Shown: in pieces, positions 1,818 to 5,033 of the stretch
Layout of the letters: the number at the start of each line of letters is the position of its first letter
How positions within the stretch are numbered: the first letter of the stretch is position 1
IMG/VR virus record: IMGVR_UViG_2706794662_000015
DNA from: a virus
Lineage: Duplodnaviria > Heunggongvirae > Uroviricota > Caudoviricetes
Reading direction: 5' to 3' (one strand)
Length of the DNA: 5,033 nucleotides
Translations under genes and position numbers: made by a program
Notes under the pieces: model-generated
The model's database searches: none
What the model saw: the letters and a program-made list of their open reading frames with translations, nothing else
Told to the model about the DNA's origin: nothing

Positions 1818-2022
1818 CATGTCGCTGACCGTCGTTCTGCGCCCGGTAATTCGCAAACGAACACTTCCGGTGCAACGGCTGGATGCCGGAGCGGTTCAGG
1901 ATTTTTTCCACCCGCAACTGACGATTCAGGCGGTTGATCTCCTCGCAACGTTTCTGGCCTTCAGCAAGTTGCCACTCGCGCCACTCCGCAACCGTTCTGA
2001 ATGGGGCGGTTACATGTGGTGG
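1818..2022. repeat. Right copy of the approx 205-bp diverged direct duplication flanking the gap
   Basis: See 1363..1567. The same codons (…PPHVTAPFRTVAEWREWQLAEGQKR…) are encoded on both sides with a few substitutions (S/C, QV/RA, Y/H). Confidence 0.85.
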
Positions 2023-2073
2023 GGTCAGTCTGCGGATACGCTCCAGAACGCCTCCTGTCGCAATATTTTTCAT
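1818..2073 (-). CDS. ydaV: DnaC-like helicase loader, N-terminal 85 codons (MKNIATGGVLERIRRLTPPHVTAPFRTVAEWREWQ...), truncated at the gap
   Basis: ATG at 2073..2071 lies 6 nt after the initiator stop (2080..2082), preceded by AGGGGG. Collapsing the overlap with 872..1567 gives a 747-nt, 248-codon gene, the length I recall for Rac YdaV. Confidence 0.7.
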
Positions 2074-2079
2074 GGTCTG

Positions 2080-3228
2080 TTACCCCCTGAAGCCTGGCGG
2101 GATCGCACTGTCCGGCAACGAGACGGTGTTAACCTGTCGGAGCAACGTCTCAGGCCGAACACCTTTCGGCGCGAACAGACCCTGGTATTCATTGGCGATG
2201 CTGTGTCGAATCACCTGCTCAGGTGTAAAACCCTGCTGACGGAATTTTTCCAGTTCCCGTATCGCCCCGTTAGCGCCCTGCTCCGTTCGAATCGGTTTTC
2301 GCAATGCCTGCCTGAACTGGACCCACTCATGCCAGAGTGTTTCTGGCAACCAGTCGGGCAGATCAACTGACAACGGGTCAAATTTTTTCTGGCGAACAGC
2401 CCCACCGATAACCAGAATTCCCTGCTCGGTGTGCCTTGCGATATCACTGCGCCGCAAGACACATATCCCGGTTTCAACAGCACCGATTTTGAGCAGTGAT
2501 TTCTGTCGCGGAGAATTTCGGTCAAGCTCGCTCCCACACCGGACACCGTTCCTGTCAGTCACGACGATATCAATCCGCCCTCCGCAACCGTCACCACGCT
2601 CTGGCACCGGATACTCACGACAGACATCCAGGCCAGCAGCCTGCAACGCAACCACCGCAGAATTACAAAATTCCGCTGCAGTACCGCCAGATAATCTCCC
2701 CTCAAGCACTCCAGCCACAAAATCCCGAAACTCCCTTCCGGAAGGGAAGGGTTTGGGATGGGTTAGATCTGTTTTTAGATCTTTATCTGTATCTTTATTA
2801 GTTGCCTTTGTGTTGGCATCATGTTCGAACATCACTCCAACATCTGTTTGAACACCTGTTAAATTTCTCTCTTGTTTTGTTTGAACATCTGCTTCCTTTC
2901 TGCTTCTTCTGGCCTGAACAGATGCTTTTCCTGCGGCTGATTTTTTGGTTAATTTTTCTCTGACAGATGCCAGATCTTCCTCAATCCGAAGATGCATCCA
3001 TTCGTCGCCGTTATCACAAAAAAACTCCCGCAAGGATGGTTCAACATCAACCCATCGCTCGTTAGTCAGACGGGCAATTTTTGCCAACCTGTTTTTGGGT
3101 ATTGGCTTTCCTGTTTGCCAGTAATTGAACATCAGCAACAAATACGCGCCGTGCTCCTCTGCTGACAAATGCATGGTGTCAGCCAGGTAATCAGCTATGT
3201 ACAGTTGCATGTATGGTAATGCGGCCAT
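2080..3228 (-). CDS. Phage replication initiator/replisome organiser: DUF1376-like N-terminal domain, charged linker encoding ori-like repeats, central domain of unknown function, DnaT-like C-terminal domain (YdaU/lambda-O functional analogue)
   Basis: ORF track 2080..3279 (399 aa). I place the start at ATG 3228 (MAALPYMQLYIADYLADT...), which fits the usual N-terminus of this family; the upstream 17 codons are hydrophobic and lack a convincing RBS. The C-terminus ...NTVSLPDSAIPPGFRG closely resembles the C-terminus of E. coli primosomal protein DnaT as I recall it. It sits directly upstream of, and near-coupled to, the DnaC-like gene. Confidence 0.75.
   Translation of the reverse strand: MAALPYMQLYIADYLADTMHLSAEEHGAYLLLMFNYWQTGKPIPKNRLAKIARLTNERWVDVEPSLREFFCDNGDEWMHLRIEEDLASVREKLTKKSAAGKASVQARRSRKEADVQTKQERNLTGVQTDVGVMFEHDANTKATNKDTDKDLKTDLTHPKPFPSGREFRDFVAGVLEGRLSGGTAAEFCNSAVVALQAAGLDVCREYPVPERGDGCGGRIDIVVTDRNGVRCGSELDRNSPRQKSLLKIGAVETGICVLRRSDIARHTEQGILVIGGAVRQKKFDPLSVDLPDWLPETLWHEWVQFRQALRKPIRTEQGANGAIRELEKFRQQGFTPEQVIRHSIANEYQGLFAPKGVRPETLLRQVNTVSLPDSAIPPGFRG
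2761..2900. repeat. Putative replication origin inside the initiator gene: AT-rich tract with two AGATCT and three 6-bp ATCTKT repeats (2764..2796), then three copies of palindromic TGTTYGAACAYC (2821..2833, 2846..2857, 2878..2889)
   Basis: Read directly from the sequence. The segment is visibly lower in GC than the flanking coding sequence and encodes a charged, low-complexity linker (residues about 128-177). In lambdoid phages the origin iterons lie inside the O gene. Confidence 0.5.
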
Positions 3229-3291
3229 AATTGCCCCGTATGATGCTGCCCGGTTGCTTAGAATAAGCACAAACAGCATGGAAACTTTTGC

Positions 3292-3714
3292 TTAATGAAC
3301 AATGACAGAATCGTCGGAAGACCCGCCGCCGCTGAAATGCGCTTTCCGGTAAACGGCCTGGACTGCATCATCATGCGCATCAATTGCCGTACTCAACGCT
3401 TCCTGCGCCGCCAGTAATGCACGGCGTTCCAGGGTATCGAAGATGCAGAGTCGGTGACGCAGCTCGCGCGGAAGAATTGCCAGAACCGCAGGGATCAGTT
3501 TCTGAATTTTTTCCCTTTGCGCTTTCGTTTCACCTTTCAACCAACGGTGATAGATATTCTGCTGATTGTTCCAGTCCTTGCCTGGTACAAGGGGCAATTC
3601 GCCGCCCCCCTGGCGCAGATATTCTTCAGTAATTGCGTTAGCGACCCACGCCTGCCCTTTTTCGGCTGCCAGGGCTAACAACACTGATTCGATGTGCTCA
3701 TGCCTGATTTTCAT
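3292..3714 (-). CDS. ydaT: cII-like / YdaT-like prophage protein (140 aa)
   Basis: Intact ORF whose ATG (3714..3712) overlaps the upstream stop in an ATGA junction (3711..3714), indicating translational coupling. Position (after the cro-like gene, before the replication genes) and length (140 aa) match Rac YdaT. The symbol rests on synteny and length, not on a verified alignment. Confidence 0.6.
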   Translation of the reverse strand: MKIRHEHIESVLLALAAEKGQAWVANAITEEYLRQGGGELPLVPGKDWNNQQNIYHRWLKGETKAQREKIQKLIPAVLAILPRELRHRLCIFDTLERRALLAAQEALSTAIDAHDDAVQAVYRKAHFSGGGSSDDSVIVH

Positions 3715-3953
3715 GAATCAACCGCTCCTATGCTGTTTTCGCTATGCTTACCGTCTGGGGGGAATACATCGTCAAGTCCACAATGAGCGCCAAGCCGATT
3801 AAGGGTAGAAACAATTTTTCTGCACTCCTCTAGTCCAGGGGTACGAAAATTTGCTTCGTAATTTGCCAGTCGGCTTTGTATCCACCCTAACTGAACAGCA
3901 AGTTGTCTTTGAGACAGCCCAAGCTGTTTTCGATATGTTGAAATTTTGTTCAT
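3711..3953 (-). CDS. Cro-like HTH_XRE DNA-binding protein (80 aa), YdaS-like
   Basis: ATG at 3953 with GGAGG RBS 7 nt upstream. HTH signature QLGLSQRQLAVQLGWIQSRLANYEA. Divergently transcribed from the repressor gene. Confidence 0.75.
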   Translation of the reverse strand: MNKISTYRKQLGLSQRQLAVQLGWIQSRLANYEANFRTPGLEECRKIVSTLNRLGAHCGLDDVFPPDGKHSENSIGAVDS

Positions 3954-4049
3954 TGAAAACCTCCGATGACAATTTTAAACACACCTTGTGTTATATAGCC
4001 AAGCTGTTTTGTGTTTTATGTAAATCACGATTCGTGATACAAGGATGCA
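3954..4049. promoter_or_regulatory. Divergent promoter/operator region between the cro-like and cI-like genes. Candidate operators: AACACA-cct-TGTGTT (3978..3992) and ATCACGA-t-TCGTGAT (4024..4038). Candidate leftward promoter: -35 at 3997..4002 and -10 at 3974..3979 on the minus strand, 17-bp spacer containing the first palindrome
   Basis: 96-bp AT-rich spacer between divergent HTH genes containing two perfect inverted repeats. The promoter hexamers are weak matches, so their assignment is tentative. Confidence 0.45.
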
Positions 4050-4469
4050 ATGGAAAAAGAAAACGAAAAAATTGCCGCTAGTAGGCTCAATGACAAAATT
4101 GCAATGCGTCTTAAAGAGCGCAGGCAGAAGCTTGGTTTATCTCAAGGAAAACTTGCTGAAATCTGCGGATGGACGCAATCGCGTATAGGTAACTATGAGG
4201 CGGGCAGCAGAAATGTTGGAGTACATGACGCTGTCGTATTGGGAAAGGCACTTGGCATATCTCCTCCTGAGCTCCTCTTTGGAGAACAGGAATCTTCTGA
4301 ATTGTGGTTAAATGAATCCCAACGAAAACTTCTTGAGTTGTTTAACCAGCTACCGGGCTCAGAACAACAACGAATGATTGAGCTATTTGAAGTCCGGCTA
4401 AAAGAAATCGATGAGTATGTAGAAAAATATTTGAGAGGCAGGATTAAAGATAATCCCCCACCGGAATAA
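4050..4469 (+). CDS. cI-like prophage repressor, HTH_XRE family (139 aa), RacR/DicA-like; no LexA-type (S24) autocleavage domain
   Basis: ATG at 4050 with AAGGA RBS (4041..4045). HTH QKLGLSQGKLAEICGWTQSRIGNYEAG is closely related to the cro-like protein's HTH. The C-terminal half is helical-looking (LLELFNQLPGSEQQRMIELFEVRLKEIDEYVEKYL) and lacks the Ala-Gly/Ser/Lys pattern of S24 peptidases. Confidence 0.75.
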   Translation: MEKENEKIAASRLNDKIAMRLKERRQKLGLSQGKLAEICGWTQSRIGNYEAGSRNVGVHDAVVLGKALGISPPELLFGEQESSELWLNESQRKLLELFNQLPGSEQQRMIELFEVRLKEIDEYVEKYLRGRIKDNPPPE

Positions 4470-4499
4470 TGATCTTGCTATCACAGTAATATGCCAATC

Positions 4500-4523
4500 A
4501 GCCCGCTATCAGCGGGCTTTTTT
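4500..4523 (+). terminator. Rho-independent terminator after the repressor gene
   Basis: Stem AGCCCGCT (4500..4507), loop ATC, stem AGCGGGCT (4511..4518), then a T-run (4519..4523), 31 nt after the repressor stop. Confidence 0.7.
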
Positions 4524-4565
4524 GTAGCATCATCATATGACACTCACCATAAAACACATTGCGTG

Positions 4566-4594
4566 TTGACACAAGAAAACAAATTGTGTTTAAT
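4566..4594 (+). promoter_or_regulatory. Near-consensus sigma70 promoter (pL-like, rightward): TTGACA (4566..4571), 17-bp spacer, TTTAAT (4589..4594)
   Basis: Perfect -35, 17-bp spacing, 5/6 match at -10. Inverted repeat AACAC-N5-GTGTT (4553..4567) overlaps the -35 and shares half-sites with the 3978..3992 palindrome. Confidence 0.45.
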
Positions 4595-4774
4595 AAGCAT
4601 ATCCAAACAACGCCCCACCAGAGAACGGCAGGACAATACCTCGAGTTATCCAGTCACTGAACAGGGCTAAGTAGCCAGCCTGAGGCATACGAACATGACG
4701 GCAGTTGTTGATTGATACAAAGCGCAGTAGATAAAACGTTCCGCCACCCGGCGTTAAGGGGAAATGGGGTCAAC

Positions 4775-4930
4775 ATGAATACTATCGATCTTGGCAACAA
4801 CGAATCTCTGGTATGTGGCGTGTTTCCCAATCAAGACGGCACATTCACCGCCATGACGTATACCAAAAGCAAAACGTTTAAAACCGAAGCTGGCGCACGT
4901 CGTTGGTTGGGAAGACATTCAGGTGAGTAA
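4775..4930 (+). CDS. Small hypothetical prophage protein (51 aa; MNTIDLGNNESLVCGVFPNQDGTFTAMTYTKSKTFKTEAGARRWLGRHSGE), possibly a YdaF-like small protein
   Basis: ORF track 4712..4930 uses a TTG start; I prefer ATG 4775 with a GGGG motif 5 nt upstream. Position (beyond the repressor, same strand) and length match the small ydaF-type genes next to racR in Rac, but I do not recognise the sequence with certainty. Confidence 0.45.
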   Translation: MNTIDLGNNESLVCGVFPNQDGTFTAMTYTKSKTFKTEAGARRWLGRHSGE

Positions 4931-5033
4931 AATGAACGAGACAGAATTAAAACACGTTATCGCTCTACTCCTAAATAGCTGCGCGGAATAGTAGATCACT
5001 TTGAGGGAACTTAGCCCGGATTGTGCGATCTGA

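Follow-up and report, generated by a model that had tools for sequence, protein, structure and literature searches.

The 5,033-nucleotide (nt) stretch of viral DNA in IMG/VR record IMGVR_UViG_2706794662_000015, analysed here over its full length and called the window, encodes a phage replication initiator of 399 amino acids (aa) that is longer than the 285-aa YdaU. In this study we asked what the additional residues in the middle of this protein are and what they might do at a phage origin. A first-pass annotation, made from the sequence alone, had noticed a faint PD-(D/E)xK nuclease-like pattern there and had left the choice between a degenerate nuclease fold and an unrelated domain. We found that residues ~172-297 are a genuine, independently folding domain, a cassette that almost certainly has the PD-(D/E)xK fold. 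The following features of the initiator gene were used throughout.

2080-3279, minus strand: replication-initiator gene, 399 aa, a hybrid of the ydaU type and the phrog_2509 type (open reading frame list, DUF1376, phrog_6451, DNA identities)
2389-2766, minus strand: in-frame cassette, aa 172-297 (LTHPKPFPSG...GGAVRQ), 126 aa (aligned as protein and as DNA to short ydaU and to phrog_2509-type alleles, both long and short)
2404-2739, minus strand: folded PD-(D/E)xK-type core, aa 181-292 (alpha-alpha-beta-beta-beta-alpha-beta plus beta hairpin)

An additional central domain in the initiator

The segment singled out earlier, 2374-2739 on the minus strand, corresponds to aa 181-302 of the 399-aa open reading frame (ORF) and reads GREFRDF...RIDIVVTDRNGVRCGSELDRNSPRQK...KKFDP, exactly as it had been quoted; the reading frame was unbroken throughout. 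The excess over the 285-aa YdaU, which had been put at about 100 residues, was 114 aa by alignment, and all of it fell between D171 and K298. The profile of the YdaU family, phrog_6451, matched the ORF (E 2.3e-116) as two stretches flanking the segment. A collinear full-length match to the ~272-285-aa YdaU family was not obtained, as the cassette splits the phrog_6451 match. The segment itself (aa 181-302) matched phrog_1347 at E 1.9e-20 over profile positions 161-266, and the stand-alone protein PhiR12_3 matched the same family at E 3.6e-56. In PHROGs this family, the sole one covering the domain, is labelled 'unknown function'. The window domain itself matched no family in Pfam, NCBIfam or PADLOC. 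When the full set of 1.84 billion representatives was scanned with HMMER, 241 proteins were returned at E<=1e-3.

YdaU proteins do not normally have the domain, and none of the libraries searched records a function for it. Neither of the outcomes that would have spoken against the first-pass proposal was seen, namely assignment to a non-nuclease fold or recognition as a usual component of this initiator family with a known function. No description of the domain, nor of a role for it at the origin, was found in the literature searched. The sequences have been known and were clustered by PHROGs; the fold, the signature and the recurrent siting inside initiators appear to be undescribed.

In RefSeq, PGAP splits intact long initiator genes into two partial pseudogenes, 'missing C-terminus' and 'missing N-terminus' (Escherichia coli FDAARGOS_944 and ETEC1746), and the cassette of the long alleles is left unannotated (locus L001, 4001-5200; locus L008, 3563-4687). 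These two partial calls, together with a prophage context that is cryptic and Rac-like, would fit a broken pseudogene carrying inserted junk. However, the gene has 399 unbroken codons, its relatives are intact with uninterrupted frames of 374-378 or 424-448 codons, the fold is confident and there are 241 homologues. Between the window and ETEC1746 the central domain differed by 11 synonymous and 3 non-synonymous changes, giving a ratio of non-synonymous to synonymous substitution rates (dN/dS) of 0.09, and the C-terminal domain gave a similar dN/dS of 0.08. We concluded that the central domain is under purifying selection. With ORFs intact and a dN/dS of 0.09, the pseudogene was rejected as a candidate, and we give it next to no credence.

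Fold of the central domain

AlphaFold2, given 72 aligned homologues, modelled aa 181-302 with a predicted local distance difference test score (pLDDT) of 90.5 and a predicted template modelling score of 0.85. The elements followed in the order helix, helix, three strands, helix, strand and beta hairpin, and the core alpha-beta-beta-beta-alpha-beta fold of the PD-(D/E)xK superfamily was present. IDIVVT lay on strand beta2 (aa 234-241) and SELD closed strand beta3 (aa 247-253), as had been guessed from the letters. In a model of the full-length protein the central domain had a pLDDT of 92-97, and a short connector joined it to the C-terminal helices. When the predicted structure was searched with Foldseek against the PDB, Bax1, NucS, AF1548 and BamHI were found at a probability of 0.96-0.99. 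In the viral library the best match was an uncharacterised phi191 protein (E 1.5e-9), followed by a 'PD-(D/E)XK nuclease' (E 3.9e-4). The structure prediction and fold search suggested in the first-pass annotation thus gave a confident model whose neighbours are nuclease-fold proteins.

A profile of the stand-alone homologues matched AF1548 in the PDB at E 0.005, with RIDlvA aligned on EIDVVA and iElD on IECK. By this alignment D237 is the canonical Asp, E251-L-D253 falls on E-x-K, and D253 takes the place of the canonical Lys. Searches of PDB sequences with the single protein and with three profiles gave only AF1548 (E 0.005-0.09) plus noise. This match was sufficient to place the motif but not to assign a family. 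Among 56 stand-alone homologues the weak Pfam matches were to MTES_1575 (22), Mrr_cat (8), Hjc (5), BamHI (4) and NucS_C (2), none of them at family threshold. These five families share one fold. The gathering thresholds of Pfam REase_MTES_1575, Hjc, VRR-NUC and UPF0102 (YraN) were not reached. The restriction-endonuclease-like fold suspected earlier is hence supported by the AF1548 profile alignment and by the consistent sub-threshold Pfam matches of the homologues. We hold both this fold and the cassette nature of the domain with very high confidence.

Conserved residues and possible catalytic competence

Residue frequencies were obtained from 153 homologous segments, representatives of 50%-identity clusters. 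The conserved positions are listed with their codons and frequencies.

2452-2616, minus strand: conserved-residue block (column frequencies in the 153 homologues; invariant columns in alignments A3, A4 and A6)
2614-2616, minus strand: codon of E222, frequency 0.89
2569-2571, minus strand: codon of D237, frequency 0.97
2527-2529, minus strand: codon of E251, frequency 0.99
2521-2523, minus strand: codon of D253, frequency 0.99
2488-2490, minus strand: codon of K264, frequency 0.99
2452-2454, minus strand: codon of R276, frequency 0.97

Further conserved positions were the RGDG loop R228-G229-D230-G231 (about 0.95), G234 (1.00), P257 (0.86), R258 (0.98), K260 (0.93) and S261 (0.99). The window protein retains every one of these residues. 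The family signature can be written as E222, the RGDG loop, D237 on beta2 and E251-x-D253 on beta3, then S-P-R-x-K-S-x-x-K in the following helix. Compared with the motif Asp plus (D/E)-x-K, D237 and E251 are present, the Lys position is occupied by Asp253, and K260 and K264 lie in the next helix. The earlier remark that the third motif reads ELD in place of E-x-K was confirmed. The accompanying suggestion of decay was not: because E251 and D253 are nearly invariant across the family (0.99 and 0.99), ELD is a family hallmark and not a degeneration.

Loss of the acidic triad or of the basic residues is very rare, and for this reason divalent metal binding and cutting or nicking of DNA are the most likely activities of the domain. 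In BamHI the active site consists of E77, D94, E111 and E113, with an acidic residue at the Lys position, and the enzyme works without the Lys. The spacing of the acidic residues in the window domain is similar to that in BamHI. By analogy, Asp253, or a lysine of the following helix, could replace the canonical Lys in the way that Glu113 does in BamHI.

Several observations weigh against an active nuclease. The domain lacks the canonical Lys. One enterobacterial stand-alone subgroup is without E222 and the larger part of the RGDG loop, but retains D237, E251, D253, R258, S261 and K264. The window copy, which is of the Shigella sonnei type, has Ser250 (codon AGC, 2530-2532) directly before E251, at a position that is Ile, Leu or Val in 95% of the family; this serine is common to a Shigella sonnei cluster (P0001, 408 member sequences), whereas Ile (ATC) is found in the Shigella flexneri and E. 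coli relatives. In ETEC1746 the invariant Gly is replaced (G234E). In view of Ser250 and G234E, individual prophage copies may be impaired.

The domain could have kept the PD-(D/E)xK fold and be catalytically dead, serving as a DNA-binding or dimerising spacer, for example one that senses unwound or branched origin DNA or bridges initiator dimers. However, the residues sited at catalytic positions, three of them acidic and three basic or polar, show 97-99% conservation across the 153 sequences, which is unusual for a purely structural module, and enzymes of the BamHI type are generally known to work without the Lys. We consider the dead scaffold unlikely, though not to be dismissed lightly. 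Catalytic competence of the domain, as judged from its residues, is an even call or slightly better.

Flanking domains and putative origin

The domains and repeats that surround the cassette in the initiator gene were located as follows.

2968-3216, minus strand: N-terminal DUF1376 domain, aa 22-104 (Pfam PF07120, E 7.3e-25)
2822-2889, no strand assigned: three iteron-like repeats TGTTYGAACAYC at 2822, 2845 and 2878 (repeat finding, family D1)
2083-2361, minus strand: DnaT-like C-terminal domain, aa 307-399 (phmmer matches to DnaT entries of the PDB)

The DUF1376 match scored 87.6 bits against a Pfam gathering score of 30.1, which places the protein by its N-terminus among the YdaU/DUF1376 initiators. 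By analogy with initiators of the lambda O type, this domain is presumed to be the origin-binding module. The C-terminus resembled the C-terminal part of DnaT (phmmer against the PDB: 2ru8, E 2e-4; 9zbt, E 8e-4) and also matched phrog_678 and phrog_18589. It presumably contacts the helicase or its loader, and single-stranded DNA. Inspection of the sequence showed that an A+T-rich stretch with GATC sites (~2764-2801) comes after the iteron-like repeats. A putative origin would thus lie inside the linker-coding part of the initiator gene, as it does in lambda O. The linker encoded by this iteron and A+T-rich DNA (aa 142-170) had a pLDDT of 33-43 in the full-length model.

Cassette boundaries and recombinant origin of the gene

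The first 510 nt of the gene were 97-100% identical to ordinary ydaU, and nt 511-1200 were 93-100% identical to the ETEC1746 initiator gene, a phrog_2509 member that encodes 374 aa with the N-terminus MASNWIKLEV. The ydaU and ETEC1746 types have the last ~210 nt in common. Since the identity partner changes at nt 510/511, the window gene is a recombinant of the two types, in which a ydaU-type gene gave the N-terminus and the iterons and a phrog_2509-type gene gave the cassette and the C-terminus. The alignment with YdaU, proposed earlier as a check for an insertion, thus showed a segment that YdaU lacks; it is not a simple insertion, as the cassette came via recombination with another initiator type. 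The junction at ~2766 adjoins the iterons and the A+T-rich stretch (2764-2889), which lie upstream of it in the sense of the gene. It follows that the N-terminal binding half brings the origin along with it, and the C-terminal half brings the cassette.

Long (374 aa) and short (262 aa) phrog_2509-type alleles were 93% identical overall. The short alleles read ...NTD-LPLNPPRQKRAS-KKFEP... and the long ones ...NTD-[126-aa cassette]-KKFDP.... Short ydaU likewise carries a 12-aa linker, PPLNPPRGNRGV, where the cassette sits. The cassette and a 12-aa linker hence replace each other at identical boundaries in two initiator families of E. coli. Of 5426 complete E. coli genomes, 40 contained cassette DNA and >2000 had short alleles; the form with a ydaU N-terminus and the cassette was found in 2 of the 5426.

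These distributions bear on whether the cassette could be a selfish homing-type endonuclease, which would cut cassette-free alleles near TD|linker|KKF and be copied in during repair, in frame and with no splicing. The identical boundaries in two families and the rarity of the cassette would agree with this, as would the comparison with the lambda-O-type protein P0007, in which the cassette is better kept (77% identical to the window) than both flanks (the C-terminus 48%, the other unrelated). On the other hand, Pfam revealed no Hint/intein or intron features, the architecture is old and widespread (35-50% identity over many initiator families), and stand-alone copies hold fixed positions in replication modules. 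The right-hand junction in the window is an ordinary homologous exchange in the shared C-terminus, and ordinary lambdoid mosaicism explains the pattern. We regard homing as quite improbable. As a separate candidate, an intein was rejected, since Pfam gave no Hint match; LAGLIDADG, HNH and GIY-YIG motifs were likewise not found, and the insert is a single PD-(D/E)xK fold of 126 aa.

As a side observation, the short-allele linker LPLNPPRQKRAS (L058 and L059, 1521-2309) matches in frame the conserved LDRNSPRQKSLL of the cassette (L008, 3563-4687). The match comprises 21 identical positions of 36 nt, a value reached by 10 of 2000 shuffles. The short linker could be the relic of an internally deleted cassette, or the likeness could be a chance one between Pro/Arg-rich strings.

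Distribution and gene context

All 79 long homologues matched phrog_1347 plus replication-initiator PHROGs (270, 9474, 678, 9327, 428, 345 and others). Their N-termini were varied winged-helix domains (HTH_36 in 10, DUF1376 in 8, Phage_rep_O in 4, DUF6291 in 4, MarR and others), and some had Phg_2220_C or DnaT at the C-terminus. In IMG/VR the domain was joined to at least 7 N-terminal types, with the long forms preceding genes for DnaC-like (~248 aa) or DnaB-size (~465 aa) proteins. Several long homologues share only the cassette with the window protein (35-48% identity), their flanks being unrelated. We concluded that the domain is a modular cassette, placed in the flexible linker between the origin-binding N-terminal domain and the presumed helicase- or loader-recruiting C-terminal domain, and that its long forms are fused near-exclusively to replication initiators. 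A profile scan of genome contigs with a narrower alignment found only 3 loci, so that the taxonomic breadth is taken from the HMMER scan, the further protein searches and IMG/VR. Further protein searches gave mainly stand-alone forms, so that the distant long-form contexts come from IMG/VR loci and from P0014.

Stand-alone proteins of 100-140 aa made up about a third of the representatives. In lambdoid prophages, stand-alone homologues of 123-125 aa were encoded directly upstream of a superfamily 2 (SF2) helicase (ResIII/DEAD/Helicase_C) and a Toprim primase (L004, 2926-5778; L005-L007, 5001-7875). The order in Salmonella and E. coli prophages was cI, cro, a small ORF, the domain, the SF2 helicase, the primase, DUF1367 and NinG. 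This pairing with an SF2 helicase is reminiscent of Bax1-XPB, a nuclease and helicase that pair in archaea; Bax1 is itself a structural neighbour of the domain. One phage contig encoded a 223-aa protein beginning with the domain, followed by DnaC-like and DnaB genes.

An anti-phage defence nuclease was also considered and was rejected, as PADLOC gave no match for the window domain and the proteins to which the domain is fused are initiators. Two stand-alone homologues gave only fragment matches in PADLOC, at E about 2-3e-3.

A possible role at the origin

Taken as a whole, we lean slightly towards the cassette being an origin-tethered, metal-dependent nuclease or branched-DNA binder of the PD-(D/E)xK type within phage initiators. 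The N-terminal domain would tether it to the iterons, ~50-120 bp from the cassette's own coding sequence, and through this tethering the domain would act on origin DNA or on branched intermediates formed there. It could make a nick that eases unwinding, make a nick that gives a 3' end, or process the fork or bubble at the hand-over to the DnaB helicase loaded by YdaV. Since most alleles of the same initiators are without the cassette, the domain is probably accessory and not essential. The specific target and any specific role at the origin are conjecture, and we would place little weight on such a role. This applies with more force to the proposal that the cassette equips some lambdoid and other phage initiators with an origin-tethered nickase, whose nick gives a 3'-OH primer or turns theta into rolling-circle (sigma) replication, which we judge improbable.

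Gene order and assembly of the window

The window covers the part of a Rac-like prophage, of the E. coli/Shigella type, that is devoted to immunity and replication, and its positions 1818-4973 were 99.5% identical to E. coli FDAARGOS_944. On the minus strand the genes succeed each other as ydaS-like, ydaT-like, the 399-aa initiator ORF and ydaV.

3711-3953, minus strand: ydaS-like helix-turn-helix gene (name from synteny with annotated genomes)
3292-3714, minus strand: ydaT-like gene (name from synteny with annotated genomes)
1818-2073, minus strand: 5' part of ydaV (DnaC/IstB-like loader), downstream of the initiator (ORF 1555-2073; synteny with the annotated 'ATP-binding protein' in loci L001 and L002)

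The ydaV gene is broken by a run of 250 N at 1568-1817. The 198 bp to the left of this run (1367-1564) and positions 1822-2019 to its right shared 94% identity, which means that the window has two copies of the 5' part of ydaV. Identity to FDAARGOS_944 was 99.5% on the right side and only 89% on the left side (421-1567). The pattern suggests that two diverged prophage copies meet here at a scaffold gap or mask, rather than a true tandem duplication. In FDAARGOS_944 an ISEc52 transposase with a frameshift separates the DUF977 gene from the block that comes next (L001, 6412-7581); this insertion is absent from the window (~421-424), where 126-424 aligns to L001 7654-7952.

Significance

To our knowledge, theta-type phage initiators (lambda O, YdaU and relatives) are regarded as DNA-binding and recruiting proteins without enzymatic activity. 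A strongly conserved nuclease-fold module that recurs between the initiator halves in at least 7 N-terminal contexts, and alone before helicase-primase pairs, suggests that initiation in some phages includes an additional step of DNA cutting or branch recognition. We rate the nuclease-fold module embedded in these theta-type initiators as a new family inside a well-known superfamily. Defining the domain would correct the annotation of the long alleles in the 40 complete E. coli genomes that carry them and in the Shigella sonnei cluster of 408 member sequences. The near-identical long and short alleles in E. coli prophages constitute a clean natural experiment for its function. If the nickase proposal were true, the same allele pairs would be a ready genetic system for the theta-to-sigma switch, which as far as we know is still not fully explained.

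Comparison with known systems

The closest relatives of the window protein are the Rac YdaU/DUF1376 initiators (phrog_6451), which have the same DUF1376 domain, iteron-bearing linker, DnaT-like C-terminus and downstream ydaV, and whose genes were 96-100% identical to the window in DNA outside the cassette. They differ in having the 12-aa linker PPLNPPRGNRGV where the window protein has the 126-aa nuclease-fold cassette. Initiators of the lambda O type (Phage_rep_O) are similar in layout, with an N-terminal iteron-binding domain, an origin in the linker region of the gene and a loader-recruiting C-terminal domain. The cassette is present in some O-type proteins (P0007, Providencia phage PSTCR7lys), and phrog_345 matches the Providencia protein in two stretches flanking it, whereas lambda O itself and most O-like PHROG families are without it.

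Among the nucleases, REase_MTES_1575 (PF18741) was the most frequent weak Pfam match of the stand-alone homologues (22 of 56, best E 3e-5), but no homologue reached its gathering score of 38.2 bits and the window domain gave no match. NucS/EndoMS, AF1548 (Mrr-like) and Bax1 keep the canonical E-x-K, unlike the window domain (AF1548: IECK), and serve repair, not initiation. Enzymes of the BamHI/OkrAI type have the PD-(D/E)xK fold, and an acidic residue stands where the Lys would be; they share no significant sequence similarity with the window domain. In contrast to them, the window domain measures ~110 aa, is without recognition subdomains and is sited inside an initiator rather than in a restriction-modification system.
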